Assembly (NCBI GenBank): GCA_016794365.1
Contig: JAEUKB010000025.1
Span: 52,693-116,692 of the forward strand
Origin: Myxococcales bacterium
Lineage (GTDB): Bacteria; Myxococcota_A; Polyangia; Palsa-1104; JAEUJZ01
Reading direction: 5' to 3'
Length of the DNA stretch: 64,000 nucleotides
This document shows positions 4,223 to 61,397 of the stretch, piece after piece; position 1 is the stretch's first letter; each line of letters opens with the position of its first letter. The position numbers were made by a program, and so were the translations under genes. The notes below the pieces were generated by a model. It ran no database searches. It saw only the letters and a program-made list of their open reading frames with translations, and was not told the origin of the DNA.

Positions 4223-5215
4223 GTGCCGCGCGTCCTGCTTGGACTGTTGGCACTGCTCCTGTCGCAGCTTGGCTGTGCGTCGGTCAATCCTCACAGTGCG
4301 GTGCGGCTGTCGCAGCAGGCGATCGTCAGCACCCACAAGCTGTCCGTCGTGCTTGCCGAGGCGCGGGTCGGACTGCATGCCTACGTCGATGCGCAGACGC
4401 TCAGTGGCTCGCTGCTTCAGCAAGCGCCGCTGTCGAATGAGACGCTGTGCCAGCTTCAGTCGGTGTCAAACAGCCTGCGCCTGAGAGAAGCCCTGCTGCG
4501 ACGACTTGGACATGCCTACGAGCACTATGTCTTGCTTGCGCAGGAAGGCCCCGAGCGCTGGTCCGGTGAGGTGTTCGACAACCTCCTGTTCGATCTAGAC
4601 CCGGCTGAGCTGGCAATGGAGCCGCCGCTGCACGAAGGCTGTCCTTCAGATCCAGCGTCCCTGATTCCGTCTTCGCTGGTGCAGGCGGATCCACCGGCTC
4701 CGCTACGGCTTACGGGCTCGTCGGCGCAGCTCCTGCGGGCGAGTCAGCGCCTGCGTGGGCTGCTCGGCCAGGTCATTGCCATCCTGGATCACGAGCGCCC
4801 GGTCTTTGTGTCGATCCTGCGACAGCAGCTTCGCTCGCGGGCGAGCCTCGCCAAGGTGCTGTACCTGCGCTACGGCGTGCTGGCTCCCGCAGAGCTGCTC
4901 ATTCCGACGCTCAGCGGCCTGGGTCTTTCCTATAGTGAGCTAGAGCTGCGACGGGGAACCAAGGACGCTGATCAGCAGGTGCTGCGACAAGCGGTGGCGC
5001 AGCTCCTGTCCGCGCGGGTGGAACGGCAGGTGGGCCTGCTGACCGCGCAGTACGATCAGCAGGTGGCGATTTTGCGAGCGCTTAGTCGTCAGCATGAACG
5101 CCTGGAAGCCGGTCAGCCGATGGATCTGCGGGTGCTGACCCAGTGGCTTGTGCCGACGCCGCCAGCAGCGGTCGTACCCGCCGGGAGCCTCGCTACGCCT
5201 ACGCTCTTGCCGTAG
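4223..5215 (+). CDS. hypothetical lipoprotein (GTG start)
   Basis: Signal peptide with lipobox-like LSQLGC; no recognisable domain; follows the infB cluster. Confidence 0.5.
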   Translation: MPRVLLGLLALLLSQLGCASVNPHSAVRLSQQAIVSTHKLSVVLAEARVGLHAYVDAQTLSGSLLQQAPLSNETLCQLQSVSNSLRLREALLRRLGHAYEHYVLLAQEGPERWSGEVFDNLLFDLDPAELAMEPPLHEGCPSDPASLIPSSLVQADPPAPLRLTGSSAQLLRASQRLRGLLGQVIAILDHERPVFVSILRQQLRSRASLAKVLYLRYGVLAPAELLIPTLSGLGLSYSELELRRGTKDADQQVLRQAVAQLLSARVERQVGLLTAQYDQQVAILRALSRQHERLEAGQPMDLRVLTQWLVPTPPAAVVPAGSLATPTLLP

Positions 5216-5372
5216 CGGCTGCCCAGCGCTGTGGATCCTGTTCGCAAGGCGTGACCACCCTAACGCTTGTGGGCTGCATCGCGGGTCGTGCTAGGGTCGC
5301 GCGCTGTGGGCTGCCTGGCTGTGGGCAGCGTGCGTGGCGTTTGGCTGAAACCCTCCTCGGAGCGAGGCACTG

Positions 5373-5967: not shown

Positions 5968-7647
5968 CTACGCGGAGGGCTTGGTCGGCTGTAGCTCTGG
6001 GTGCGCGTAGACGCCCCCGGCCAGCGAGCGAACATTGTAGCCGTGCTGGGCTAAGATGCGGGCGGCGAAGTAGCTGGTCTTGCCGTGTGCGCACAGGGTA
6101 ACGACCGGCATGCCCTGCTCCAGGGTCGGCAAGGCGTCTCGCAGTGCGGCCAGCGGGATGTTGCGGGCTCCTTCCACCGGCAGCTCCTGAGCGGCTGCGG
6201 CTCCCCGTACATCGACAAGCTGGATCCCGGGCTCTGTCGGCAGCGCAGAAACAGGGCGGACCAGCTCATCGCGCTGGTTGGTTGCCGCAAAGCCCGCCAC
6301 GTTCACCACATCCTTGGCGCTACCGAAGGGCGGAGCGTAGGACAGCTCCAGGTGAACCAGGTCGTCAATCGTCAGCCGACCGCGCAGCGCGGTGGCCAAG
6401 ATGTCCAGCCGCTTATCGACGCCCGCACCGCCGTAGGCTTGCGCACCCAGCACATCGCCGCTCTGCGGATCCCACAAGAGCTTGAGCGTGACCGACTCTG
6501 CCCCGGGATAGTACGAAGCATGCGACGAGCCCGCCACCAGCGTCACGCGGTAGTCTCGCCCAAGGGCCCGCAGCCGCTTTTCAGACAAGCCCGTGACACC
6601 TGCCGTCAGCGCAAACACCCGGACAATCGCCGTCCCCAGCGAGCCCGGATACGGCAGCGCCTTTTCCCCCAGCACAATGTGGTCGGCGCAGGTGCGACCC
6701 TGACGGTTGGCCGGTCCGCCGAGCGGGACGTTGGTCTGCTCTCCGGTAAACAGGTCGGGCGTTGCACAGACATCGCCGAGCGCATAGATCAGCGGATCGC
6801 TCGTCTGCAAGTAAGCGTTGACCGCAATGTGACCACGCGGTGTCAGCGCCAGGCCCGCTTCTTTGCCCAGGCGCGACTCCGGCACCACTCCGATCGACAG
6901 GATCACGGCACCGACCACGATGCGCTCGCCATGGGATGTGATCGCGCAGACGGGTTCGTGGGGCCGCTCGCTGGCTTCAAAAGACACAATCGCGGTGCCC
7001 AGCCGCAGCGCAATACCCTGGCGAACCAGCTCTTGCGCCAGCGGGGCCGCCATGTCCGGGTCGAGCGCGGGCAGCACCTGCGGCTGAAGCTCCACCACAT
7101 GGACGCGCTTGCCCAGGTGCGCAAGCTGCTCGGCCATCTCCAGTCCGATAAAGCCTGCGCCAATCACCAGCACCGACTCCACCTCTTCCACCGCGTGCTT
7201 GATCCGGTCCATGTCCTGCAAGCTGCGCAGGGTCAGGATCTCGGGCCGGTCGATGCCAGGCAGCGAGGGCCGAAGTGGAGCCGCACCCGGTGCCAAGATC
7301 AAATGATCATAGGGAAGCTGCGACTGCTGGCCGCTGCGCAGGTCCACCACCGTCACCGTACGGGTGCTGCGGTCGATGTGCGTGGCTTCGGTCTGGGCGC
7401 GCACGTCAATGTGCAGCAGGCTGCGCAGCGAAGCAGGCGTCTGAATCGTGAGCAGGGAGCGATCGGCAATCTCGCCCCCGATGTGATAGGGCAGCCCACA
7501 GTTGGCAAACGATACGTCGGGCCCGCGCTCCACCAGGGTGATCTGGGCAAACTCATCCAGGCGGCGAAGCCGTGCCGCCGCCGAGGCTCCTCCCGCAACG
7601 CCACCGATGATCACGACACGACGGCTGGGAGTTTTTGCATTCAACAT
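5968..7647 (-). CDS. CoA-disulfide reductase / NADH oxidase-like FAD-dependent pyridine nucleotide-disulfide oxidoreductase with C-terminal rhodanese domain
   Basis: VVIIGGVAGGASAA FAD motif, redox-active Cys in SFANCGLPY, second GAGFIGLE NAD motif, C-terminal rhodanese with CAHGKTS active-site loop. Start moved to the internal ATG (M69 of the ORF), which is preceded by AAGGAG. Confidence 0.8.
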   Translation of the reverse strand: MLNAKTPSRRVVIIGGVAGGASAAARLRRLDEFAQITLVERGPDVSFANCGLPYHIGGEIADRSLLTIQTPASLRSLLHIDVRAQTEATHIDRSTRTVTVVDLRSGQQSQLPYDHLILAPGAAPLRPSLPGIDRPEILTLRSLQDMDRIKHAVEEVESVLVIGAGFIGLEMAEQLAHLGKRVHVVELQPQVLPALDPDMAAPLAQELVRQGIALRLGTAIVSFEASERPHEPVCAITSHGERIVVGAVILSIGVVPESRLGKEAGLALTPRGHIAVNAYLQTSDPLIYALGDVCATPDLFTGEQTNVPLGGPANRQGRTCADHIVLGEKALPYPGSLGTAIVRVFALTAGVTGLSEKRLRALGRDYRVTLVAGSSHASYYPGAESVTLKLLWDPQSGDVLGAQAYGGAGVDKRLDILATALRGRLTIDDLVHLELSYAPPFGSAKDVVNVAGFAATNQRDELVRPVSALPTEPGIQLVDVRGAAAAQELPVEGARNIPLAALRDALPTLEQGMPVVTLCAHGKTSYFAARILAQHGYNVRSLAGGVYAHPELQPTKPSA

Positions 7648-7844
7648 GACCGGGCTCCTTTGGAGGACAGGAATCGGACCCATGCGGATCGCGACGTGCA
7701 GCTTGTGGCTGCTGCGCCGTCCGTACGTCGCATGGGGCCCGCTTCCTGTAGAAAGAGCAGGAACTGTACCAGGACGCGCTGCGCAGTCGCTTCGTCGCTG
7801 TCCGGTCAGACCGGGAAGACCCGGTGCCCGGTGGTGGCTCGCCT

Positions 7845-7890
7845 GTTTCAACTGCGTGTTTCATATCGAAACAGTGCAGCTGAAACAAAG
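7845..7890 (-). terminator. nested inverted repeat (possible terminator of the small peptide gene or a protein-binding site)
   Basis: gtttcaactgcg...tgtttcatatcgaaaca...tgcagctgaaac: inner perfect 6-5-6 palindrome inside an 11/12 outer stem; no U-tract, so weak as an intrinsic terminator. Confidence 0.25.
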
Positions 7891-7905
7891 GCGAGCGCCT
7901 CCTGA

Positions 7906-8091
7906 CTACTTCTTGTCTCCAGCCGGGGCTGGGCCTTTGCCGTCCTGACCCTTGGGGGCCGAGTCGGTCTTTTTGTCATCCTTGGGTGCCGTCTTTTCAT
8001 CCTTGGCCGGGGTCGGTTCGCTGGCGCGTGCTGCCGTCATCGAACCAAACGCAAACAGACCGACCAGTGTAGCGAGCGTCATCTTGTTCAT
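7906..8091 (-). CDS. small secreted Lys/Asp/Pro-rich peptide (61 aa precursor, ~38 aa mature)
   Basis: Sec signal peptide (LATLVGLFAFGSMTAARA/SE); AAGGAGA RBS 7 nt upstream of ATG; low-complexity K/D/P-rich mature part; sigma-54 promoter candidate upstream. Confidence 0.5.
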   Translation of the reverse strand: MNKMTLATLVGLFAFGSMTAARASEPTPAKDEKTAPKDDKKTDSAPKGQDGKGPAPAGDKK

Positions 8092-8165
8092 GGCTGTCTC
8101 CTTGTGAGTAAGTGGGCACAGACTCGGTCTGGGACCGTGTCGAGCCCGGTGTCAGCCAAGTGCTA

Positions 8166-8182
8166 GAGCACTCGTTGTGCCA
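8166..8182 (-). promoter_or_regulatory. sigma-54 (-24/-12) promoter candidate driving the small secreted peptide gene
   Basis: On the minus strand the sequence reads TGGCAC-aacga-gTGCt with canonical GG/GC spacing, ~60 nt upstream of the 8091 start and immediately downstream of a sigma-54 activator gene. Confidence 0.4.
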
Positions 8183-8247
8183 AGGTGTTTGTCGTCGCTG
8201 CGCAGGCCCACTTGGGTCCGCTGCATCGGGAATCGAGCCCGGCTGTA

Positions 8248-8305
8248 CGGGAAAATTTCCTGATCCCCGTTGAAAATCATCCAGCGACCGCGCGGGAAAA
8301 TTTGC
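8248..8305. promoter_or_regulatory. two copies of near-palindromic cGGGAAAATTTsC spaced ~45 bp; candidate enhancer (UAS) for the NtrC-type regulator
   Basis: cgggaaaatttcc at ~8248-8260 and cgggaaaatttgc at ~8293-8305, 65-140 bp upstream of the sigma-54 -24 element. Confidence 0.3.
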
Positions 8306-8401
8306 AGCTCGCTTCTTTCGTACCTGGCTTCGCGCACCCGGCTGCGCGGCGACCTGGGGCTTTGGGGGCGACATCGGCCCCGCGAAACACCGAGTCACAG
8401 G

Positions 8402-9763
8402 CTACGGCTTCTCTTCCGACAGCCAGTTGTAGAGCGTCTTGACATCCACCCCCAGCTTTTCCGCCGCTTGACCACGATGGCCACCTACCTGCGAGAGCGC
8501 CCACGCTGCATAGCGCCGCTGGATCAGGCGAATCGGCAAGATGTCTCCCTCCAGCGAAAACGGCGTGCTGGTCCCCGATGGTCGCAGCGTGGACGGTAGA
8601 TCACTTACACCCACTTCTTCGGATCGTCCCAGCACCACCAGTCGCTCCAGAACGTGAGACAGCTCGCGCACGTTGCCGGGCCACTCGTAGTCCAAGAGGC
8701 GCTGCATCACCTCGGGGCTGACCCGCTGCACCGGAGACTGCGGATGCCGGACCCTGTGCTCATGCAGAAAGTGGCCAATCAGGATCGGAATGTCTTCACG
8801 GCGATGCCGCAGCGCGGGCAGGTGAACCGAGATCACATCCAGCCGATAGTAGAGATCTTCGCGAAAGCGACCCGCTTTGACCGCTTCCCGCAGGTCGCAG
8901 TGCGTGGCCGCGATGATGCGCACGCTCACGCGCTGGGGACGATTGGATCCGACCGGACGAACCACGCCTTCTTCCAAGACGTGCAGCAGCTTGACCTGTA
9001 GCGCGGGCGGTAGATCGCCGATTTCATCGAGAAACAGGATGCCGCCGTGGGCCTCTGCCACCAGTCCTTTGCGGGCTTGGGTTGCGCCGGTAAAGGCTCC
9101 CTTTTCGTGACCGAACAGCTCACTTTCCAGCAGGTGCTCGGGCAGCGCACCGCAGTTGATCGCAACAAACGGACCGCCTGCCCGCAGCCCTTCGGCATGG
9201 ACAACGCGCGCAAACAGGCTCTTGCCGGTTCCTGTTTCGCCCCCGATGAGCAGCGGAACGTCCGCGCCGGACACCCGATCGAGCAGCTCAAACAGCGCGA
9301 GCATCGCTGGACTTTGCCCAATCAGCCCGGTCCGTCCGTTCTTTTCCCGTAGTGTCACCCGCAGCGCACTGGCTTCCCGCCGCACCTTCGCTTCATCGAG
9401 CGCTCGCCGCAGAAAGATCACCAGCTCTTCGATCTTGAACGGCTTGGTCAGGTAGTGCGCAGCGCCTTGACGGATGGACTCGATCGCACTGTCGATGGCC
9501 CCGTGTGCGGTCATGATCAGCACCGGACGCTCGGGAGCCTGCCGCCGGGACTGGGTCAGCAGCGCCAGACCATCGACATCCGGCATGCGCAGGTCCGTCA
9601 CCAGTGCGTCAAACGGCTCTCGACCGAGCAGCGCGGCGGCTTTCTTGCCCGATCCGAGTGGCACTGCATCAAAGCCATGGTCGGTCAGACCTTCGGACAG
9701 GACCTCGGCCATCGCCAGGTGATCATCAACGACTAGGACGCGGGGCCGGACTTCACTTGGCAT
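8402..9763 (-). CDS. sigma-54-dependent response regulator (NtrC family: REC + AAA+ + Fis-type HTH)
   Basis: Receiver LVVDDH...D, Walker [15 protein letters not shown] sigma-54 contact motif, [16 protein letters not shown]-terminal HTH. Start set at M37 of the ORF (overlaps the HK stop by ~11 nt). Confidence 0.9.
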
Positions 9764-11168
9764 GCTCTTCCTCTGGCAAAACGGGCAGTGCGATGTCGGC
9801 GCAGGTTCCACCTTCGGCCCGAGGCGCAATCGCCAGCGTGCCGCGATGACTTTTGACAATCTCGTGTGCAATCGCCAGCCCGAGCCCTGTGCCTTGACCC
9901 GCTGGCTTGGTGGTGAAAAACGGCTCCATGGCGCGCGCGGCGGCCTCCGGGGAGATGCCCGCCCCGCTGTCGATGACCTGAAAGATCACCTTTCCCTCTG
10001 CGATGCGTACGACCAGCTCGACGCAGGATGGACTTGTGGACTTCGCGGTGCAGGCATCGCAGGCATTGAGCAGCAGGTTCACCAGGGCATGCTCCAGCAG
10101 GCGCTGATCGCCACGCAGCAGCGCTGGCGTCGTCGGCTCATCAAGCAGCAGCGGCACCCCGGCTTCGGAAAAGCGATGCTCCACAAGCGACACCGCGCCA
10201 TGGACCACCGCATGCGGCGTCAGCACTTGGGCCGCGACGTTCTGGCCGCGCACAAGCCCGAGCAAGCCGCAGATGATCTGACTCATGCGCTCGGCCTGTT
10301 CCAAGATGACGCGGACGATGCGGAGGTTGCGATCATCGCCTGCGACCTTGGACTGAAGCTGCTCGGCCCGGGCGGTGATGATGCCAAGCGGGGTCGATAG
10401 CTCATGCGTGATGCCCATTGCCAGGGTTCCCATCGTGGCGGCTCGACTGGCGCGCTCTAGCTCGGTATCCCGTCGGCGTCGTGCATCCTCTACCAGCAGC
10501 GAGTGCTGGGCCCGCAGCTCGCGCTTCTGCCCCCACAGCGCAGCTCCACCGAGCAGCAGCATCGCTCCGGCAGCCACCAGCACTGCCAGCACCATCCGCC
10601 AGCTTGCGGCATTTTCCCGATCCCGGGCGCGATATACCGTCGCCACTGCCGCGACCCAGAAGATCTGCTGGCCAGGTGTCTTTTGAGAAGCCAGACCGAC
10701 CACCGCCGCGCGCCGTGGCAGCCGCAGCCGTCCCGCCTCCTCACGAGACATGCGCAGGGTTGTTTGGCCACCATGCACCGCTTGCAGCAGCGTCTCACTG
10801 GCGAAGGTCTGTCCATCGGGCGCATGAAACACCGTCTCACCGGGGGCCAGTACATAGATCGCGAGCGAGCCGGGCTGTTCAATCTGGGCCAGACCTTGCG
10901 CAAGCTGCGCGATCGGTAGCGTCTGGGGCCGCGCGACGGATTCCGGTCTTTGGGCAGACCACAGCGCGATGCGTGCAGACAGCTCACTGGCCAGGCTGCG
11001 AGCCAGCGTCTCTTGGGCGCGCGCATACTCGGACAGCGACTCTGCGTAGCGCCACTTGACATCCTGATACGTCAGCAGGGCCACCGTAGATATCGCAACG
11101 ATCATCAGCACGATCAGCACGCCGGTGCGATGCCAGGGCCTAGACGGGGACAGCGGGAACTTGGTCAC
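9753..11168 (-). CDS. sensor histidine kinase (2 TM, HisKA + HATPase_c)
   Basis: H-box ITHELSTPLG, N/G1/G2 boxes (LLLNACDA, DSGAGI, GTGLGLAI). The long ORF's N-terminal ~330 aa is low-complexity and overlaps the TolC gene on the other strand, so the start was moved to an in-frame GTG preceded by GGAGAG; start uncertain. Confidence 0.75.
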   Translation of the reverse strand: MTKFPLSPSRPWHRTGVLIVLMIVAISTVALLTYQDVKWRYAESLSEYARAQETLARSLASELSARIALWSAQRPESVARPQTLPIAQLAQGLAQIEQPGSLAIYVLAPGETVFHAPDGQTFASETLLQAVHGGQTTLRMSREEAGRLRLPRRAAVVGLASQKTPGQQIFWVAAVATVYRARDRENAASWRMVLAVLVAAGAMLLLGGAALWGQKRELRAQHSLLVEDARRRRDTELERASRAATMGTLAMGITHELSTPLGIITARAEQLQSKVAGDDRNLRIVRVILEQAERMSQIICGLLGLVRGQNVAAQVLTPHAVVHGAVSLVEHRFSEAGVPLLLDEPTTPALLRGDQRLLEHALVNLLLNACDACTAKSTSPSCVELVVRIAEGKVIFQVIDSGAGISPEAAARAMEPFFTTKPAGQGTGLGLAIAHEIVKSHRGTLAIAPRAEGGTCADIALPVLPEEEHAK

Positions 11169-11386
11169 GAGCGACTCTCCAGCGCGCCAGCTTTTGCGCG
11201 ATTCAAAGCAATGGACAGGCCAACAGCGTGGTCGTCTAGGGGACAGTAGATCGCAGCAGCTTGGGCAGCCGATTCGGGAAGTTTTGCCGATTTCGTTCGG
11301 CAATTTTTCCCGGTGCGCTGGCCGGTGCGGCGGCTGTTTGTGCGGTGTAGCGACGGTCTGAACGGGATGTACGCCCGCTGGATACC

Positions 11387-11402
11387 TGGCATGTCCTATG
11401 CA
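11387..11402 (+). promoter_or_regulatory. weak sigma-54 promoter candidate upstream of the efflux operon
   Basis: TGGCAT-gtcct-aTGCa with correct GG/GC spacing. It is very close to the annotated TolC start, which would imply a downstream start codon; uncertain. Confidence 0.25.
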
Positions 11403-11416
11403 CGACAGGGTCTTCT

Positions 11417-12931
11417 GTGGATGCCAACAGGATGAGACCTTCGCTTCCCTCTGTGGTCCTTGCGTGGGCTGCTTCGCTGCTGCTGGGTGAGCATGCTGCC
11501 GCACAGCGCGGACCCGATTCGGCTGCGTCTGTTTCTGTTCCAGCGCGCGCGCAGCAAGCGGCTGCGGCCACTCCTGCGGATGGAAAGACACAAGCTGCTG
11601 CAACGACGCCGGATGGACGGTCGCGAGCGATCCCGGTGCTGTCTCTGTCCGAGGCGCTGACCTATGCCGCCCGACATCAGCCATCGCTTCAAGCGGCGCG
11701 AGCGCGGATCGAAGTGGCGCGGCGCAGTGTCTCGGTGGCGTATGCAGAGTGGCTGCCGCAGCTGGGAGCCACCGCGCAGCTGTTTGGCGGCACGATGAAC
11801 AACAGCACCGCGATGTTTTCTTCAGTGCGGACGATGGATCTGCCGCGCATCGGAGGAAGCAAGTCCCCGACCGAGGTGGATCTACAGGAAGCGTATCCAT
11901 CGACGCTGGTGGGCATCGGTCTGCGACAGACGGTGTTTGACTTTGGCCGGATTGCTGCGCAGGTCGCGCTGGCGGATCACGAGGTCCGCATTGCGTCTCA
12001 TCGCGTAGAGCTGGAGCAGCTAGAGCTGGGGCTCGCGGTGGAGAGTGCCTACTACGCAGTGCTCGCGGCCAAGGCGGTCGAGCGTGCGGCCCAAGAAGCC
12101 TACGCTCGCGCGGTGCTGCGGATGGAACTGGTGCAAGCGGGGGTGGCGCGGGGTCTGCGTCCGCCAATTGATCTGACGCGCGCAGAGGTGGATCGCACCC
12201 GCTTTGATGTGGGAAAGACCCGGGCGCGTGGAAACATCGAGCTGGCCCAAGCGCAGCTGGCCGCCGTGGTGGGATGGACGGAGCCGCTGCTTGATGCGCA
12301 GGACGTAGAGCCAGATGATGAACAGCCGCTGCCGCTGCTTGGGGAAGCGTTCCAGCGCGCGATCGATACCGAGCCGACGGTGCGCGTGGCCGTGGCGCGG
12401 CTTGTGCAGCAGCAGACCGTGACGCGCCAAGCGCTGATGCAGTGGATGCCCAGCTTGCAGCTTACCGCGAGTGTGAGTGGACGGGCGGGAGGAGCTCCCC
12501 TAAGCAGTGGGCCATCGGGCTTTTCTGGCTGGGTTCCTGAAGTGGCCAACTGGGATGTCGGGTTGGTGCTGTCGGTTCCGATCCTTGACGGAGTCCTGAT
12601 CGCGAAACGGAATCAGAGCCACGCGCAGGAGGAGGTGCTTCGGCACGAAGTCGATGCAGCGAAGCGACAGGTCTTGACCAACGTAACCCGCGCGTTTACC
12701 GGCTTTCAGCTTGCACGGGAATCGCTGCGGGCCTTGCGAAGTGCTGCGAGTGCGGCGCGCCAAAACTACGATCAAGCGAGCGCACGGTTTCGCTCTGGTC
12801 TGGCCTCTAGCATCGAGCTGGCGGATGCCGAAGCACTGCGGACAGAGGCCGACATTCAGCTTGCGATTGGACGCTTTGAGATTGCACGCAGCCGGGCTCT
12901 GTTTCAGCGAGCGCTCGCTGCCGGTCTGTAA
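11417..12931 (+). CDS. TolC-family outer membrane efflux protein
   Basis: Signal peptide, two OEP repeats (SLSEALTYAARHQPSLQAA... / LTRAEVDRTRFD...); first gene of an OMP-MFP-RND operon. Confidence 0.85.
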   Translation: MDANRMRPSLPSVVLAWAASLLLGEHAAAQRGPDSAASVSVPARAQQAAAATPADGKTQAAATTPDGRSRAIPVLSLSEALTYAARHQPSLQAARARIEVARRSVSVAYAEWLPQLGATAQLFGGTMNNSTAMFSSVRTMDLPRIGGSKSPTEVDLQEAYPSTLVGIGLRQTVFDFGRIAAQVALADHEVRIASHRVELEQLELGLAVESAYYAVLAAKAVERAAQEAYARAVLRMELVQAGVARGLRPPIDLTRAEVDRTRFDVGKTRARGNIELAQAQLAAVVGWTEPLLDAQDVEPDDEQPLPLLGEAFQRAIDTEPTVRVAVARLVQQQTVTRQALMQWMPSLQLTASVSGRAGGAPLSSGPSGFSGWVPEVANWDVGLVLSVPILDGVLIAKRNQSHAQEEVLRHEVDAAKRQVLTNVTRAFTGFQLARESLRALRSAASAARQNYDQASARFRSGLASSIELADAEALRTEADIQLAIGRFEIARSRALFQRALAAGL

Positions 12932-13006
12932 GTCGCGGCGCTGCCTTGTCCGATTCCTGGCCGAGTCCTTTGGGGTTCTGGCCGAGTCCTTTCCATCGAG
13001 GTTGTC

Positions 13007-14146
13007 ATGTCTACACCCAGTCTGTCTGCTCCTTCCTCGCGACTGCGCGTGCCGCTGTTTTTGGGCCTTGTGGTCTGTCTGCTGATTGGTCTGCTTGCGC
13101 TGCTACAGGCGCGCGCGCGATCGAACACCAACCAAGTAGCGCTCGATTCCACTCCCAAAGGAGTCACAGTGACCAAGGCTGTTCGCGCTACGTATCGACC
13201 ATCGCGTCGCTATGTCGGAACGGTTGCGCCGTGGCTGGAAGCGCGGATCGGACCGCAGATGACTTCTGCCTATGTGGACACTGTGCTGTTGCGACCCGGA
13301 GTGTACGTAAAGCGCGGTCAGGTGCTGGCTACGCTCGACTGTCGCAACGCATCCGAGCAGAGCAAAGCCTTGGCGATGCAAGCACGCGCGCTGCACGCCA
13401 CCCAAGAAGCGCTGGCCAAGGAAACGGGGCGCGTCTCGGGTCTACTGGAAGGTGGCTATGTGTCTCCCAATGAAGTGGATCGGCGCGTCGCGGACAGTGC
13501 CAGCAAACAGGCCGAGCTGCTGGCGGCCAATGCTCGTCTGGCGCGCGCATCACTGGAAGTCGATGACTGTGTGCTGCGGGCTCCGTTTGATGGGGAAGTG
13601 GCGGAGCGATTCCTCGATCCCGGCGCGTTTGCGCGGCCCGGAGCGCCGATTCTGTCTGTGGTCGATCGCGAGCAAGTTCGCATCCTGATCGATGTTCCAG
13701 AGACAGACTTTGCGGTGGTGGAAGTGGGCGCAGAGGCCAAGGTTCGCTTTCTGGCACTGGGGACGGAGCTGGTTGGCAAGATTGCCCGGCGCGCACCCAC
13801 TGCCGACAGCGTCACCCGCACCATTCATGCCGAGATCGACCTGCTGGATGCGCAGCGCAAGATTCCGGTCGGAACGACTGCGGAGCTTACGCTGCACGTT
13901 GGACAGCCAGTGCCTGCGAGTGAGCTGCCGATACGTGCCGCTGCCGTGCGTGGAGAGCAAGCCACCCTGTTTGTCGTGTCTGATGACATCGCGCGCAAGC
14001 GCAAAGTTCCGGTCTTGGGGGAAGTCACCGGGAGTCTGTTTCTGCCGCTTGATGCACTTCCGCCCGAGACGCTGGTGGTTGTGGAAGGTCGCGCGCTGCT
14101 CAGTGATGGGGATCGCGTACTTACCAAGCAGGAGTCACGGCCATGA
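13007..14146 (+). CDS. efflux RND transporter periplasmic adaptor subunit (HlyD/MFP family)
   Basis: N-terminal TM anchor, biotinyl-lipoyl-like hairpin motifs (RGQVLATLD, coiled coil), beta-barrel domain; 4-nt overlap with the RND permease. Confidence 0.85.
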   Translation: MSTPSLSAPSSRLRVPLFLGLVVCLLIGLLALLQARARSNTNQVALDSTPKGVTVTKAVRATYRPSRRYVGTVAPWLEARIGPQMTSAYVDTVLLRPGVYVKRGQVLATLDCRNASEQSKALAMQARALHATQEALAKETGRVSGLLEGGYVSPNEVDRRVADSASKQAELLAANARLARASLEVDDCVLRAPFDGEVAERFLDPGAFARPGAPILSVVDREQVRILIDVPETDFAVVEVGAEAKVRFLALGTELVGKIARRAPTADSVTRTIHAEIDLLDAQRKIPVGTTAELTLHVGQPVPASELPIRAAAVRGEQATLFVVSDDIARKRKVPVLGEVTGSLFLPLDALPPETLVVVEGRALLSDGDRVLTKQESRP

Positions 14147-17100
14147 CGCGGCTTTCGCTCAAGAACCCGATTGCGATCCTGATGCTGAGCCTGGCGCTGA
14201 TCGTGTTCGCTTCTGTGATCGTTCAGCGCCTGTCGATCGATACCTTTCCAGAGCTGACTCCGCCGGTTCTGGTGGTGGGAACGCTGGCACCGGGACTGGG
14301 TCCCAAGGACGTAGAAAAGACGATCACCTGGCGGATCGAAAAGTACGTGAGTGCGACCCCCGGAGTGGATCACGTCCAGAGCTTGTCTCGTAACGATCTG
14401 TCGGTGGTCTATGTCTGGCTCAAGTGGGGGACGGACCTAAACGCAGCGCAGACCTTGGTGCAGCAGCAGGTCGCGTTCGCGATGGCAGCGGTTCCCAAGT
14501 CGCTCGGGGTGCTGCCTCCGTTTGTGCTTCAGTACGATCCGTCGAACGCACCAGTGATTCAGATCGCAGTATCGGGAGACGGCTTTACCGGACCACAGAT
14601 CTACGACTATGCCCAGAACGTCATCGAGCCTGTGATTGAAGGGATCGCGGGTGTTGCCAGCGCGTCACCCAATGGCGGTCGGCAGCGGCAGATCAACGTG
14701 GTGGTCGATCCGGTGCGCGCTCAGGCTCGCGGGCTGACTTCAACCGATGTGGCAGCGGCTGTGGCCCAGACGACCGCGCTGCTTCCTTCGGGCAAGTTCA
14801 TCAACCCACGCTTCGACGCCAACGTCTACACCAACGCAGTCCCAGAGCACGTTCGTCAGATCGGCGAAGCGGTGGTGAAGCAGCGAGCGGGCAAGCCGGT
14901 TCTCCTGCGTGATGTGGCGCGCATCGAAGATGGCGGTGCGGTGGAGACCCAAGCGGTCGCGATCAACGGCAAAGAAGCGGTGTACCTGAACGTGCTGCGG
15001 GTGCCCGGAGGCAACACGCTGGCGATTGTCGATGCGGTCAAAGAAGCGGTGGCGGCGATGCAAAAGACCCTGCCGCCTGGCTTGACCGTGCGCGCGATTT
15101 TCGATCAGTCCACGTTTGTACGAACCAGCTACGAAGGACTGCGCAAAGAAGTGGTGCAGGCACTCGTGCTCATCGCGATCGTGATCCTGATCTTTTTGCA
15201 GAACCTGCGCGCGGTGCTGATCGCGGTGCTGTCGATTCCGATCGCGTTTGCGACGATTCTGCTGGTGCTCTACGCGACTGGACAGACGCTGAACGCGTTT
15301 ACGCTGGGAGGTCTGACGCTGGCGATGGGACCGCTGGTGGACATCTCGGTGGTGGTGCTGGAGTCGATCCATCGTCATCGTCACGGCAGTCGTAGCGAAG
15401 AACAAGCGGCGCTGCATGGCACAAATGCGGTGGCGCTGCCTGCGCTGGCTGCGACGCTGACCACGATTGCAGTGCTGATTCCGGTGCTGCTGCTGGCGGG
15501 CCTGGCCAAGAAGCTGTTTGCTCCGCTGGCGCTGACCGTGGCGACCGGGATGATTGCGGGCTATGTGGTGAGCATGGCGGTGACTCCGGTGGCGTGTCGC
15601 TATCTGCTCGGTCACGGAGAGCCCGGACCGCTGGCTCGCTTTGTCGAAGTGCGCATCCAGCGCCTGGCCGACTGGTATGTGCGACTGCTGCGTGCCACGT
15701 TGGCCTTTCGCGCGGTCCTGATTGGCGGGGCGGTGGTCCTGATTGCGGCGAGCGGTTACTTTGCGTCGCAGCTCCCCAGCACGTTCTTTCCCGAGATCGA
15801 CGAGGGCATGGAGCGCATCTATGTGCGGCTGGCTCCGGGTACGTCGCTGACCGAAGCCCGTCGTCAGATCCTTGCCATGGGCGAGCGACTACAGCGCGAG
15901 TTGCCCGCAGGCTCCGTCAGCTTGGTGCTGGCCAACATTGGATCGCCGCAGAACGCGCGCTCGGCCATGAACAGCCCCAACGCCGGTCCGCACATGGGCT
16001 TTCTTCGCCTGGAACTGAGCGACGCCGCGCATCGCAAGCACTCGCAGCGAGAGATCGCCGATCAGGCCCGGGCGATCCTGACCCGTCACTATCCTGGGGT
16101 CAGCTTCCTTCAGTGGCCCGGCGGCCTGGTCGCCAGCGTCTTTGCCAACGGCTACCTGGCCCCGCTGGTGGTCGAGCTGCGTGGTAGCTCACTCGACGAG
16201 CTGTACGAGCAGTCGCAGGCCATCGCCGAGGTCGCTCGCTCTGTCCCTGGCGTTCGCGACATCACCCCGCAGCTTCAGATCGACTACCCCGAGGTCCGCA
16301 TCGAGCTAGACCGCGCCCAGGCGGGTATGGTCGGTGTGCCGCTGCGCAGTGCGGCCCAGACCACCTTGGAGGCCACGATTGGCAACATCAACTCGCCCGG
16401 CATCTGGGTCGATGGCTCAAATGGCCAGTCCTACTACGTCGTCACCACGTATGACCGCGAGTCCATCCGCGATCCCAGCCTGCTTTCGCAGGTTCCGGCC
16501 CGCTTGTCTGAGCGTGGCATCGCGGTGGCGCTGGGGACGTACGGCAAGGTGCGCCGCTCGCTGGGGCCGATCGCCATCGAGAGAAACCAGCTTGAGCGCA
16601 CCGCCACGGTCTTTATGCAGACCGAAGGCCGGGACATCGGCAGTGCCGCAGCCGAGCTGGAAGCCAAGCTCAAGTCATCATCCAAGACCGCCGGGCTTCA
16701 CTTCCGCTTTGTGGGCCAAGTCGAGCTGATGCGCACCACCTTTGGCGGCATCGGCATCGCCATCGGCTTGGCCGTGATGGTGGTCTTTATGATCATGGCG
16801 TCGCAGTTTCAGTCCTTGCGGCTGCCGCTCATCATGCTGCTGTCGATCCCGGGGGCGCTGGTCGGCATCGTGCTGGCGCTGCTGGCGGCGGGGCAGGGTT
16901 TTTCGATCACGGCGCTGATGGGCGTGCTGATGGTCGTCGGCATTGCTGTGTCAAACGGCATCCTGCTGGTCGATGCAGCCAGTCAGCGTGTCCAGGGGGG
17001 CGAGTCCTTGCTGGAAGCCGCCTTGTCCGCTGCGCGGGTGCGCTTTACGCCAATCGCGATGACCAGCTTGGCCACCATCATTGGCCTTCTGCCGACCGCG

Positions 17101-17244
17101 CTGGGACTTGAACATGGTGCCGAGTCGAACCGACCGCTCGCCCTGGCCGTGGTGGGAGGGCTTTCGACCGCAACGCTGCTCTCGCTGTTTCTGGTTCCCG
17201 CCCTGTTCACCCTCATCGGCAAGCCCGAGCAGCCTGCGCCGTAA
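14143..17244 (+). CDS. efflux RND transporter permease subunit (AcrB/CzcA superfamily)
   Basis: 1033 aa, 12 TM topology with two large periplasmic loops; characteristic N-terminal MTRLSLKNPIAILMLSL... and TM4 GPLVD...VVLES motif. Confidence 0.9.
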   Translation: MTRLSLKNPIAILMLSLALIVFASVIVQRLSIDTFPELTPPVLVVGTLAPGLGPKDVEKTITWRIEKYVSATPGVDHVQSLSRNDLSVVYVWLKWGTDLNAAQTLVQQQVAFAMAAVPKSLGVLPPFVLQYDPSNAPVIQIAVSGDGFTGPQIYDYAQNVIEPVIEGIAGVASASPNGGRQRQINVVVDPVRAQARGLTSTDVAAAVAQTTALLPSGKFINPRFDANVYTNAVPEHVRQIGEAVVKQRAGKPVLLRDVARIEDGGAVETQAVAINGKEAVYLNVLRVPGGNTLAIVDAVKEAVAAMQKTLPPGLTVRAIFDQSTFVRTSYEGLRKEVVQALVLIAIVILIFLQNLRAVLIAVLSIPIAFATILLVLYATGQTLNAFTLGGLTLAMGPLVDISVVVLESIHRHRHGSRSEEQAALHGTNAVALPALAATLTTIAVLIPVLLLAGLAKKLFAPLALTVATGMIAGYVVSMAVTPVACRYLLGHGEPGPLARFVEVRIQRLADWYVRLLRATLAFRAVLIGGAVVLIAASGYFASQLPSTFFPEIDEGMERIYVRLAPGTSLTEARRQILAMGERLQRELPAGSVSLVLANIGSPQNARSAMNSPNAGPHMGFLRLELSDAAHRKHSQREIADQARAILTRHYPGVSFLQWPGGLVASVFANGYLAPLVVELRGSSLDELYEQSQAIAEVARSVPGVRDITPQLQIDYPEVRIELDRAQAGMVGVPLRSAAQTTLEATIGNINSPGIWVDGSNGQSYYVVTTYDRESIRDPSLLSQVPARLSERGIAVALGTYGKVRRSLGPIAIERNQLERTATVFMQTEGRDIGSAAAELEAKLKSSSKTAGLHFRFVGQVELMRTTFGGIGIAIGLAVMVVFMIMASQFQSLRLPLIMLLSIPGALVGIVLALLAAGQGFSITALMGVLMVVGIAVSNGILLVDAASQRVQGGESLLEAALSAARVRFTPIAMTSLATIIGLLPTALGLEHGAESNRPLALAVVGGLSTATLLSLFLVPALFTLIGKPEQPAP

Positions 17245-52091: not shown

Positions 52092-53609
52092 ATGAGTCTG
52101 TGTGAGTCGCTTTCGTCCATTGCTGCTGTCAAGCCGACTGATGTTGTCATCTCTGCGCCTGCGCTAAATCGACGTGCGATACGGCAAATCATCAATCGCG
52201 CACTGGGCAGCCCGGCAGAGCTGGATGCGTTTCTGATCGATTACTTTCCAGAGATCTATCGGCTAACCAGCGATGCCATGAATCGCGATGTCAAGCTGAA
52301 CCTACTTCTGTGGAATACGGAAGAAGAAGAGCTGCGCTCGCAGGTGGAGCAGTCGTTTCCGCAGCATGTCAAAGAGGTGCGTACGCTGCTGGCGGATCAG
52401 GCGACCTCGACCGAGCTGCCCGGCGACGACACGCGCAAGCGCTTTGTGGTGATCTTGTCCGCGACGATCGAAGAAGCGGACCGGCATCAGGTCGTGGCGC
52501 TGCTGCGGCACATGCGGCTGTACACCAGCGACGCAGAGCTGACGATCGAAGCGGTCCAAAGTGGCAGCGTCGTCTTGATCTGTTCGGCGACCGATGAAGC
52601 GTTTCACAAGCTGTTTGAAGAGTTTGTCGTCGGACACTTGCCGAAGCTGTTGCACTTTTCGATCCTCGACATCTATCCGGCGCACCTGCCGCAGTGGCGA
52701 AAGCGTCCGGCGGCGAGCAGTCCGGCGACGAGCGATCCGGCGATGAGCGATCCGGCCAAGCGTCGTGAGCAGGAGTGGGCCGTCGCGAGTCTTTCGCGAC
52801 CCACGGATGTCGATCTCGATCGCAACGCCCAGACGCTGCGGATAGAGCGAGCATCCCCGTGGCTGCTGTATGCGGTGATTTCGTTCTTGGTGACGGTCGG
52901 CATTGGGCTGCTTTTGCTGTCGCTGGTCCTGCCGCGCGCGTTTTGGCAAGAGCCGGGCTGGACCAATTCTTCGAGGCTGGGCATCATCGATCTGGGCAGT
53001 CAGCAGGCAGCGCATCCCAGTCCGCCCGTCCGCATCGAGTCATCCGCTTCAGTCGCGTCAGCACCGCACGATCTGGCCGCTGCGAGCGACGATGAGCCGC
53101 TTCATGCCACCGAGCCGTCCGCGCTGTCCGTCCCGTCCCCCAGCCGAGCGCCTGCTGCGCGTTCTGCAAAGTCTTTTGCGTCAGCGCCCGAGCCTGAGCC
53201 CGAGCCCGAGCCCGCGCTTGAGCCTGAACCTGAGCCTGCACCGTCCCCGCTCAAGTCATCCAAGCGTCGTGTTGGTATCCAAACAACCAGCAAAGCGCAT
53301 GAAAGCAAAGAAGTGTTTCAGATCTCTGCGTTTTGTGGACCGTCCATCGAATGTCAGAATAGTCAGATCTCTGTGTGGGTGAAAAAGTGCCTAACAGATG
53401 TCCAGCCTGACGACATCAAACTGCGCGCAGAAGAACCGACTATTTTGAAAAAAATAGGAGATCGCTATTTTCCATACAGCCACTATGCTGATGATGGAAT
53501 GCGCGCTCGTATGCAGCAGATTTGTACGTGTGTGCAAGAACAGCTAGCGGACAATCAGCCCGATATGACGCGCTGGCCTGTTCATATCTGGATCTTGCCC
53601 GGTTCGTAA
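52092..53609 (+). CDS. hypothetical single-pass membrane protein: cytoplasmic N-terminal alpha/beta domains, TM helix, Pro/Glu-rich linker, extracytoplasmic Cys-containing C-terminal domain
   Basis: TM helix WLLYAVISFLVTVGIGLLLLSLVL; (EPEP)n linker; no recognised domain. Track ORF starts at TTG 52062; the ATG at 52092 has a G-rich RBS. Confidence 0.45.
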   Translation: MSLCESLSSIAAVKPTDVVISAPALNRRAIRQIINRALGSPAELDAFLIDYFPEIYRLTSDAMNRDVKLNLLLWNTEEEELRSQVEQSFPQHVKEVRTLLADQATSTELPGDDTRKRFVVILSATIEEADRHQVVALLRHMRLYTSDAELTIEAVQSGSVVLICSATDEAFHKLFEEFVVGHLPKLLHFSILDIYPAHLPQWRKRPAASSPATSDPAMSDPAKRREQEWAVASLSRPTDVDLDRNAQTLRIERASPWLLYAVISFLVTVGIGLLLLSLVLPRAFWQEPGWTNSSRLGIIDLGSQQAAHPSPPVRIESSASVASAPHDLAAASDDEPLHATEPSALSVPSPSRAPAARSAKSFASAPEPEPEPEPALEPEPEPAPSPLKSSKRRVGIQTTSKAHESKEVFQISAFCGPSIECQNSQISVWVKKCLTDVQPDDIKLRAEEPTILKKIGDRYFPYSHYADDGMRARMQQICTCVQEQLADNQPDMTRWPVHIWILPGS

Positions 53610-60000: not shown

Positions 60001-61397
60001 GCCTTTTCGCTCTCTTCTGCGTCGGAACGGATGGTTAGGCCGTGCTCTTCCAGCTTGGCGTATAGGTTCGGTCTGCCGATGCCGAGCTGCCTTGCGGCTT
60101 CGGAGCGATTGCCTCCCGCTCGCTGGAGCGCGCGCAGCAGCATGTACTTTTCCAGCTGCTGGACCGCTTCTTTGAGCGTGCCGTCCTCGGGAATCTGCCA
60201 GCTTTCGGTGCGGCCCACATCCTTGGCAGTCACCGTCGAGGATGTTGTACAGAGTCCTATCGGCAGCGCGGGCACATCAATGACTTCTCCGCCACAGAGC
60301 ACCGCCGAGCGCTTGATGACATGCATCAGCTCGCGCACGTTGCCTGGCCAGCGATAGTTCATCAGACAGCCCATCGCTTCTTCGGACACCGCGCGCGCCG
60401 GGGTTCCTTCCAGCGCATGTGCGACGAGCAGCGGAATGTCACTGCGACGCGCACGCAGCGGCGGAACCGAGATCTCGATGACCGCCAGTCGATAGTACAG
60501 ATCTTCGCGCAGCACGCAGCCTGGCTCAGCGGGATGCACGGGCTTGTGGGTGGCGGTGATGACGCGCGCGCGGTTTTGCAGCGTCTCGCTGCCCCCGATT
60601 CGCTCGAAGCAGCCGTCGGCCAGCACGCGCAGCAGCTTGGTCTGAAGCGCTCCTTCCAGATCGCCAATCTCGTCGAGAAACAGCGTTCCTTGCGCCGCCA
60701 GCTCCAGCCGTCCAGCGCGCCGCACCGTGGCTCCGGTAAATGCTCCTTTTTCGTGTCCAAACAGCTCGCTTTCCAGAAGCGACGACGGCACCGCTGCCAG
60801 ATTGACCGCCACAAACGGCTGCTGTGCGCTGGTGCTGTAGTCATGAATCGCGCGCGCAACCAGCTCTTTTCCGGTTCCCGTTTCGCCCGTGATCAGCACT
60901 GGAACTTGCGTCGCTGCGGCGCGTCCAATCAGCTTCCAAATCGCGAGCATTGCCGTGCTGGTTCCCACCAGGCTTCCCGCTTGCAGAGGCGACGGAACTT
61001 TCGGCTGTTCACTGTGAAGCGTCTGGGTCAGCGTCCGCTGCTTTATGGCTCGCTCGACGGTAGACAGCAGCACAGGAACGTCAAACGGCTTGGTCAGATA
61101 GTCAAAGGCTCCGTCGCGCATGGCTCGAATCGTGCGCTCGCTGTCGCCGTACGCCGTCACCATCACGACGGGCACATCGCGCCGGGCTCCCTGTCGTAGC
61201 TCGCGCAGCAGCTCCAGTCCGTCTCCGTCACGTAGCCGAATGTCGAGCAGCACGCAGTCGATCTCACTTCTGGATAGAAGCTCGCGTGCGACAGAAATTC
61301 CCGGTGATAGTAGTGCGCGATGACCCAGCGTCTCGACGGCAGCTTGTAAGCCTTCGCGGATTCCTTTTTCATCTTCAACGATCAAGATGGTGCTCAT
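59997..61397 (-). CDS. sigma-54-dependent response regulator (NtrC family)
   Basis: REC domain (ILIVEDE...D), GETGTGKE Walker A, GAFTGA, C-terminal HTH; overlaps the HK gene by 4 nt. Confidence 0.9.

Follow-up and report, generated by a model that had tools for sequence, protein, structure and literature searches.

A predicted sigma-54 two-component regulon joining an efflux pump, its own regulator genes and a small exported peptide in an uncultured myxobacterium

Introduction

What does an NtrC-type two-component system control when a divergent efflux operon lies on one side of it and, directly behind its regulator gene, a sigma-54 promoter and a 61-codon open reading frame (ORF) lie on the other? 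This arrangement occurs in Myxococcales bacterium assembly GCA_016794365.1 on contig JAEUKB010000025.1, of which we analysed a stretch of 64 kb (positions 52,693 to 116,692 of the forward strand; hereafter the window, whose own numbering is used below). An earlier note, made from the letters alone, had read the small ORF as a secreted peptide that is the dedicated output of the kinase-regulator pair, possibly co-regulated with the efflux operon. Our analysis points to an answer that we consider probable: the system would be an envelope-facing sigma-54 two-component regulon that comprises the pump, the system's own genes and an exported peptide.

Results

A promoter module shared by eight lineages

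Each element that the earlier note had placed behind the NtrC-type regulator gene is present, and the regulator gene, enhancer sites, promoter, ribosome-binding site and small ORF all lie on the minus strand (Table 1). The two reported copies of GGGAAAATTTsC were recovered as GGGAAAATTTCC at 8249-8260 and GGGAAAATTTGC at 8294-8305, at a distance of 45 bp. If one mismatch is allowed, this repeat pattern has three matches in the window against 0.21 expected, and none of 100 shuffles reached three. The putative promoter, TGGCACAACGAGTGCT, is the only full -24/-12 match in the 64 kb; it has GG at -24 and GC at -12 with exactly 10 nt between them, in agreement with the sigma-54 promoter rule and near TGGCAC-N5-TTGCW. 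The two enhancer-like sites fall within the ~80-150 bp upstream of a sigma-54 promoter that its enhancers should occupy, with the gene of a GAFTGA regulator adjacent. Transcription is predicted to start at about 8156-8154, which would give a leader of ~65 nt, and no sigma-70-like promoter was predicted in 7500-8600.

Eight lineages of uncultured Myxococcota share this module, with two sites (consensus CGGGAAAtTTTCCCG), a TGGCAC-N5-nTGCT promoter, a ribosome-binding site and the ORF, so that candidate enhancer sites, promoter and peptide ORF are co-conserved as the unit that the earlier note had proposed. In the eight-lineage alignment TGGCAC and TGCT never change, unlike the N5 spacer, which varies; the sites are 43-45 bp apart in all eight, again with variable spacers. 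All eight also keep a purine-rich ribosome-binding site and a TTCCCGAT-like half-site in which T84, C86 and C87 are invariant, and which we infer to be an architectural site or else a weak third site for the regulator. A GAGACGG-like element (GCGACGAC, at 8195-8203 on the minus strand of the window) stands 10-22 nt, mostly 10-14 nt, upstream of the -24 element. This conserved element is common to the peptide promoters and to those of the kinase-regulator operons of L084 and L082 (~22 nt upstream in the latter), and could be the site of an architectural protein or an extra regulator contact.

The module occurs in three contexts: after the regulator gene, divergent from a Trypsin_2 protease gene, and divergent from a DUF302 gene. 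It lies directly 3' of the regulator gene in four lineages. Locus L082/L083 (regulator 92% identical) has the efflux operon, kinase, regulator, two sites and TGGCACATGCGGTGCT, followed by a 61-aa ORF ~75% identical to that of the window. L087 (regulator 83%) and L092 have the same layout with an ORF of 72-73 aa, the L092 contig holding only the C-terminal end of a similar regulator gene, and in L081 the peptide module is likewise present beside the regulator. Loci L084/L085 (88%), L086 (82%) and L088 (75%) retain pump and regulator and have no peptide module beside the latter. The expectation that orthologous kinase-regulator pairs keep a small ORF downstream was therefore borne out in L082/L083, L087 and L092 and failed in these three. 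In the alignment, the difference is an indel of ~490 bp whose limits coincide exactly with the regulator stop codon and the end of the small ORF. Regulators were counted as orthologues only at 75% identity or more, because P0010, a 69% identical regulator, is an orphan paralogue in an unrelated context.

The peptide gene has no linked two-component system in L090/L091 (the genome behind L090 is GCA_046351595.1), L093 and L094/L095, where its divergent partner is the Trypsin_2 gene; in L096 that partner is the DUF302 gene. A canonical hairpin-plus-T-run terminator ends the module in L087, L090 and L093, which argues that it is monocistronic. Judged by these contexts, we conclude that the peptide module is a self-contained, monocistronic, relocatable cassette.

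The Trypsin_2 protease has a probable lipoprotein signal (..GFGC / ..GLGC). A conserved sigma-54-like element, GCGG(C/A)TC(A/G)GATCTTGCGC, lies upstream of its gene and would use the enhancer sites of the peptide gene; the divergent regions are 8650-8815 in L090, 1925-2175 in L093 and 60-300 in L094. This suggests that in genomes of the L090/L093/L094 type the protease belongs to the same regulon. A tblastn search with the protease found no copy in the 64-kb window.

The same sites stand between the kinase gene and the efflux operon

A second, inverted pair of sites, overlooked in the earlier note, stands in the intergenic region from which the kinase gene and the efflux operon diverge. A position-weight-matrix scan returned only four strong sites in the 64 kb, in two pairs, each beside a sigma-54 match; the scan is partly circular, as the matrix included the window's own sites. 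A sigma-54-like promoter faces outward on either side of the second pair. The one facing the pump, TGGCATGTCCTATGCA, is identical in L082 and L084 and has the counterparts TGGTATGGCGCGTGCA in L086 and TGGTATGCGCCGTGCA in L088; the one facing the kinase gene, TGGCCTGTCCATTGCT, is conserved in L082, L084 and L086. The divergent layout, a pair 23 bp apart with outward sigma-54-type promoters, is kept in five loci (the window, L082, L084, L086 and L088). Co-regulation with the efflux operon, which the earlier note had raised as a possibility, is thus backed by sites and promoters conserved in five orthologous loci. The same result weakens its other proposal: since the predicted regulon takes in the pump operon and the kinase-regulator operon, which have the same sites, the peptide would be one of three predicted outputs, and "dedicated output" is too strong.

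From this arrangement we infer that the regulator binds the CGGGAAAtTTTCCCG sites and that the promoters depend on sigma-54. The sites could instead be bound by another transcription factor, in which case the peptide gene of the window would lie next to the two-component system only incidentally, and the module does lie away from the system in four lineages (L090/L091, L093, L094/L095 and L096). This is quite unlikely, as the same sites recur in the system's own divergent promoter region in five of five orthologous loci and stand directly 3' of the regulator gene in four lineages. Moreover, a sigma-54 promoter needs an enhancer-binding protein, and the adjacent regulator is the one consistently linked to the sites.

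The regulator itself combines a receiver (PF00072, 3e-25), a Sigma54_activat domain (PF00158, 3e-68), an AAA_lid (PF25601) and a C-terminal Fis-type helix-turn-helix that is matched weakly (HTH_8, PF02954, 1e-3). The acceptor D57, GAFTGA, Walker A and Walker B (LFLDEIG) are readable in its translation. With a receiver and its Asp, an AAA+ domain with GAFTGA and a helix-turn-helix, it has the make-up of an NtrC-family two-component enhancer-binding protein. The kinase gene overlaps the regulator start by 11 nt. Its product is predicted to have transmembrane segments at residues 15-35 and 189-212 around a periplasmic domain of ~150 residues (~36-188), and a HAMP domain is absent from its domain make-up. 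Orthologues of the regulator, 99-75% identical, occur in the same gene context in metagenome assemblies, one member of the cluster being annotated "Myxococcales bacterium"; a genome-contig scan gave, among the matches listed, paralogues at 47% identity or less and no orthologous loci. The window has a second sigma-54 activator gene at ~60261-60971 (minus), whose central domain is 51% identical to that of the regulator, and a weak enhancer-matrix match, CGGGAATTTCTGTCG (14.3 bits, 61289-61303), ~300 bp from it.

Table 1. Features of the kinase-regulator locus, in window positions (minus-strand features mostly written from high to low)
Feature	Position	Strand	Remarks
CoA-disulfide reductase-rhodanese gene	7647..5968	minus	next gene after the small ORF
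44-bp palindrome	7844-7887	no strand	four TGTTTCA/TGAAACA repeats; directly 3' of the small ORF
Small ORF	8091..7906	minus	61 codons and stop; product MNKMTLATLVGLFAFGSMTAARA followed by SEPTPAKDEKTAPKDDKKTDSAPKGQDGKGPAPAGDKK
Signal peptide	8091..8023	minus	residues 1-23; predicted cleavage between ARA and S
Mature peptide	8022..7909	minus	38 aa; K/D/P-rich polyampholyte; starts SEPTPAK
Ribosome-binding site AAGGAG	8103..8098	minus	6 nt 5' of the ATG at 8091
Putative sigma-54 -24/-12 promoter TGGCACAACGAGTGCT	8182..8167	minus	TGGCAC-N5-GTGCT
Half-site-like element TTCCCGAT	8224..8234	minus	CGATTCCCGAT on the minus strand; between UAS2 and promoter
Upstream activating site 2 (UAS2), proximal enhancer-like site	8248-8262	no strand	CGGGAAAATTTCCTG on plus; centre ~-98 from predicted start; 45 bp from UAS1
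Upstream activating site 1 (UAS1), distal enhancer-like site	8293-8307	no strand	CGGGAAAATTTGCAG on plus; centre ~-143 from predicted start
NtrC-family sigma-54-dependent response regulator gene	9763..8402	minus	453 aa; Pfam domains and readable motifs
Cognate sensor histidine kinase gene	11168..9753	minus	GTG start, GGAGAG ribosome-binding site; HisKA and HATPase_c
Sigma-54-like promoter TGGCCTGTCCATTGCT	11222..11207	minus	faces kinase-regulator operon (putative autoregulation)
Second enhancer-site pair, inverted	11275-11289, 11298-11312	no strand	CGGGAAGTTTTGCCG, CGGCAATTTTTCCCG; centres 23 bp apart
Sigma-54-like promoter TGGCATGTCCTATGCA	11387-11402	plus	faces outer-membrane-factor gene and efflux operon
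Tripartite efflux operon	11432..17244	plus	Pfam OEP, HlyD_D23, ACR_tran
Outer-membrane-factor gene	11432-12931	plus	ATG at 11432; ORF opens at 11417
Adaptor gene	13007-14146	plus
Resistance-nodulation-division (RND) permease gene	14143-17244	plus

The small ORF encodes a member of a new family of predicted exported peptides

Conservation of the ORF in the eight lineages, on which the earlier note's proposal depended, goes with constraint on its codons. Between the window and L082 the ratio of nonsynonymous to synonymous substitution rates (dN/dS) is 0.13, with 24 of the 41 nucleotide differences at third codon positions, and between L092 and L093 it is 0.21; length differences in the family are whole codons. 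By these measures, the small ORF is a real gene under purifying selection. Its signal peptide, assessed by inspection, divides into MNK, MTLATLVGLFAFGSM and TAARA (cleavage before S) as n-, h- and c-regions, which gives the basic n-region, the hydrophobic h-region of 10-15 residues and the small-X-small cleavage motif of a Sec (type I) signal. The MNKK start and hydrophobic core are conserved across the family, and every member keeps an AXA motif, as ARA, ALA, ASA or AQA.

These features bear on whether the transcript might instead be a sigma-54-dependent non-coding RNA, with the ORF untranslated. Small RNAs controlled by sigma-54 and an enhancer-binding protein exist, as with GlrR and glmY/glmZ (PMC4987338), the encoded product is very small, with a low-complexity sequence, and a "long" subfamily has a conserved leader hairpin. 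We nevertheless regard this reading as extremely improbable in view of the substitution ratios, the third-position bias and the whole-codon length differences, to which the conserved start codon, ribosome-binding site, n/h/c regions and AXA site add; Rfam, too, has no family that matches the module region. The "long" leader hairpin (GTCAGGTC...GACCTGC) lies just 5' of the ribosome-binding site (L087 2284-2349, L090 8935-9000, and the leaders of L092, L093 and L094). Its fold in L087 has an energy of -34.3 kcal/mol (z -3.4), and the leader of the window/L082 clade differs. It may influence mRNA stability or translation.

Mature peptides of the family have 38-50 aa, with 9-10 Lys and 7-9 Asp plus Glu. 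Their net charge is +1 in eight of the nine members examined and +2 in L094, and Cys, His, Met, Trp and aromatic residues are absent from all those examined. Two motifs are invariant, a KD(D/E)KKTD core and G-x-A-P-x-G-G at the C-terminus. In the window a unit of seven residues, xxPKD(D/E)K, is duplicated, which in the DNA is an internal direct repeat of 21 nt (7973-8014). The helix of the signal peptide (residues 3-15) is the only one in the AlphaFold2 model, where the mature part has no secondary structure, at a predicted local distance difference test score of 45-54; the mature peptide is predicted to be disordered.

A first, word-based search with the peptide returned a single near-identical cluster only, and the family was recovered by profile search and an exhaustive HMMER search. 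The latter, a profile search of 1.84 billion representatives, gave 31 small proteins at E <= 1e-3, about a dozen of which carry the C-terminal signature KKDDAKGGAPAGGxKK; one homologue is annotated "Polyangia bacterium". A metagenome-contig scan with the peptide profile found L091 again and nothing further. No Pfam family matches the window peptide at E <= 0.01, the ZraP/CpxP/Spy-type families included, and NCBIfam has no match to it either. Among solved structures, a profile search returned nothing but spurious matches to immunoglobulin light chains and matches to signal peptides, and in the literature we found no paper on the peptide family or the binding motif, a search with the motif leading to eukaryotic papers only. 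On these searches, the family is a previously undescribed group of small, by their signal peptides secreted, proteins of 53-100 aa that have no Pfam or NCBIfam model. A Pfam scan of seven members gave only sub-threshold DUF4148 and DEC-1_N noise; membership of DUF4148 was rejected, its best E value being 0.0078, in three of the seven, below the gathering threshold, with no hit to the window peptide. We discarded two overlapping ORFs, 7997..8398 (minus, 133 aa) and 7952..8107 (plus), as artefacts of GC-rich sequence: both extend across the conserved non-coding promoter region, and neither has homologues.

A group of related small secreted proteins (P0136, P0141, P0142, P0143, P0147 and P0154) has a MNKKALAALVSTLAFGSV-type signal peptide and a K/D/E-rich region, and ends in paired Cys motifs (e.g. 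SCGGEKGCGG), which the window family lacks. It may be a sister family, perhaps with a metal- or redox-related role.

The pump does not group with heavy-metal exporters

If the pump exported heavy metals, the system could be metal-sensing and the peptide a periplasmic metal handler like CusF, ZraP or CzcI. The adaptor indeed matches CzcB-type domains, a JGI label on orthologous regulators reads HydG (=ZraR), and the many Asp and Glu residues of the peptide could bind hard cations. The permease, however, scores 431 bits on the CusA/CzcA model TIGR00914 (cut-off 701) and higher on multidrug models; it is under all NCBIfam cut-offs, the best being multidrug RND_permease_2 (604 bits, cut-off 1250). 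Heavy-metal RND permeases carry a DFG-DGA-VEN charge-relay signature in the fourth transmembrane segment. The segment here reads LGGLTLAMGPLVDISVVVLES, is atypical, and matches neither that motif nor the AcrB-type one. We therefore rejected a CzcCBA/CusCBA-type identity for the pump, on the missed TIGR00914 cut-off and the missing signature. The metal reading as a whole appears distinctly improbable, given also that His, Met, Cys and Trp are all missing from the mature peptide and that regulator and kinase fall far under the ZraR and ZraS cut-offs. In L084, the 5' end of the outer-membrane-factor gene has about five tandem 15-bp units (GGGAGTCCGTTTGGG-like, ~5200-5290), a repeat that the window does not have.

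The downstream gene and its palindrome

The coenzyme A (CoA)-disulfide reductase-rhodanese gene is next on the same strand after the small ORF, and the sigma-54 promoter might serve this gene, the small ORF being a leader or an accidental ORF. In favour of this, the hairpin between the two lacks a U-tract, and in L084/L085 the reductase gene directly follows the regulator. Even so it is very unlikely. Entirely different genes lie downstream of the module in L082, L087, L090, L092, L093 and L096; canonical terminators close it in three of these; L084, which has no module, retains the reductase's own conserved sigma-54-like promoter and palindrome; and the small ORF is under purifying selection.

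That promoter is TGGTACAGTTCCTGCT at 7771..7756 (minus), with the palindrome ~75-115 bp upstream of it, and both are conserved in L081 and L084 (TGGTACGGTTTCTGCT). The RNA of the 44-bp palindrome folds at -39.9 kcal/mol (z -7.6), and the palindrome may possibly be either a terminator hairpin or an enhancer for the sigma-54-like promoter of the reductase gene. In L084 it stands directly after the regulator stop codon, and its inter-repeat spacers are non-complementary there, which argues for a protein-binding enhancer of another activator and not just an RNA hairpin. L088 has GTTTCA-N4-TGAAAC and CGGCACTTGAGTTGCT after its regulator gene. In L082, a 76-aa ORF after the peptide gene (8916-9146) is a degenerate reductase N-terminus (MLNAKASSLRV.. 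against MLNAKTPSRRVVIIGG.. in L081), so that the reductase gene has decayed in this lineage with the peptide module intact. A sub-threshold Rfam match to the Vibrio antisense RNA V_AS7 (7436-7604, plus; 71.9 bits against a gathering threshold of 90, E 1e-12) covers the full model length antisense within the reductase gene and probably reflects protein-coding conservation, not an RNA gene.

Discussion

A model of the circuit

In the circuit that we consider probable, the kinase would sense a periplasmic or envelope cue and phosphorylate the NtrC-type regulator, which would bind 15-bp palindromic sites of consensus CGGGAAAtTTTCCCG. The pair between the kinase gene and the RND operon would serve both sigma-54 promoters, with pump induction and autoregulation as the result, and the pair 3' of the regulator gene would drive the canonical sigma-54 promoter of the monocistronic 61-codon gene. 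Its product would be exported by Sec and cleaved after ARA, to leave a 38-residue, charge-balanced, Lys/Asp/Pro-rich and probably disordered peptide in the periplasm.

Several observations weigh against this model. The -24/-12 match is weak alone, as chance would give 0.30 matches and at least one turned up in 26 of 100 shuffles; the significance of the module comes from its conservation across relatives and not from window statistics. The absence of a U-tract after the hairpin makes read-through into the reductase gene possible in the window. The orthologous loci L084/L085, L086 and L088, with no module beside the regulator, indicate that the peptide is dispensable, at least locally, for the core of pump and regulator. 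Finally, the link between sites and regulator rests on co-localisation, and another enhancer-binding protein could bind them, such as the second one encoded in the window.

The role of the peptide is the weakest step of the model. Our best guess, drawn by analogy, is a periplasmic accessory factor of a stress and efflux response, with a place like that of ZraP, CpxP or Spy in enterobacterial circuits. We favour such an accessory or effector role because of the predicted co-regulation with an RND pump, the divergent protease gene that shares the sites in other genomes, and the invariant motifs. The KD(D/E)KKTD core and the G-x-A-P-x-G-G motif suggest a specific partner and not bulk charge; the kinase sensor domain or an envelope protein is a candidate, and feedback on the sensor domain is plausible. 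Alternatively, the peptide might be a signalling ligand, either autocrine on its own kinase or leaving the cell as a sigma-54-controlled signal between myxobacterial cells, possibly aided by the RND/TolC-type pump that would be induced with it, or once processed by the trypsin-like lipoprotein protease under the same control. The invariant motifs and a dN/dS of ~0.13-0.2 are compatible with a linear binding motif, and we hold this signalling variant to be unlikely.

The circuit model yields a complete, testable regulon prediction (motif, three promoters and target genes) for one of many uncharacterised NtrC-like activators of the Myxococcota. It also adds a previously unannotated small secreted family, of a kind that gene callers and databases largely overlook. 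The cassette of two sites, sigma-54 promoter, small ORF and terminator is a clean natural example of a portable sigma-54 unit. Should the peptide modulate the kinase or protect the envelope, ZraP, CpxP and Spy would have in it a minimal and disordered counterpart, and the putative sigma-54 link to an RND pump bears on detergent and antibiotic tolerance in myxobacteria. A literature search on sigma-54 plus RND efflux found nothing describing this system.

Comparison with known systems

The closest known architecture is ZraSR-ZraP (HydH/HydG) of E. coli and Salmonella. It too is a sigma-54 two-component system with a periplasm-sensing kinase, in which ZraR acts from shared sites on the divergent sigma-54 promoters of zraP and zraSR, with autoregulation, and a small Sec-exported periplasmic protein is a principal target (PMC4987338). 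The suggestion that sigma-54-controlled small secreted peptides are poorly described therefore has to yield to this precedent. The divergent partner here is an RND operon, whereas the peptide gene lies downstream with a site pair and a promoter to itself; the K/D/P-rich peptide of 38 aa, predicted to be disordered, matches none of the CpxP/Spy/ZraP-type families. On the NCBIfam equivalogs the regulator scores 375.8 bits (ZraR cut-off 760) and the kinase 133.1 (ZraS cut-off 479). With both cut-offs missed, an unrelated accessory protein and a different gene order, we did not assign the locus to ZraPSR.

In E. coli, the BaeSR regulon (mdtABCD, acrD, spy) and CpxAR-CpxP are cases in which an envelope-stress system induces an RND pump together with a small periplasmic protein, and CpxP can feed back on its kinase. 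BaeR and CpxR are OmpR-type sigma-70 activators, not sigma-54 enhancer-binding proteins, and Spy and CpxP exceed 100 aa and have a folded, helical structure. These systems are functional analogues of the one described here, whose activator is of the sigma-54 type and whose peptide is short and predicted to be disordered.

Within the phylum, the closest studied case is DcaR (Nla13, MXAN_3811) of M. xanthus, a species with 53 NtrC-like activators (PMC11287280). DcaR is a sigma-54 regulator in an operon behind the kinase MXAN_3812, a gain-of-function allele raises efflux pumps and deoxycholate resistance, and the regulator appears to be autoregulated (PMC11287280). It thus shares with our system the phylum, a sigma-54 regulator operonic with its kinase and the link to efflux; it differs in that the main text reports no binding motif or small secreted peptide target (PMC11287280). 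We conclude that the circuit is of a kind already known, sigma-54 control of a small periplasmic protein, and that the peptide family is its new part.

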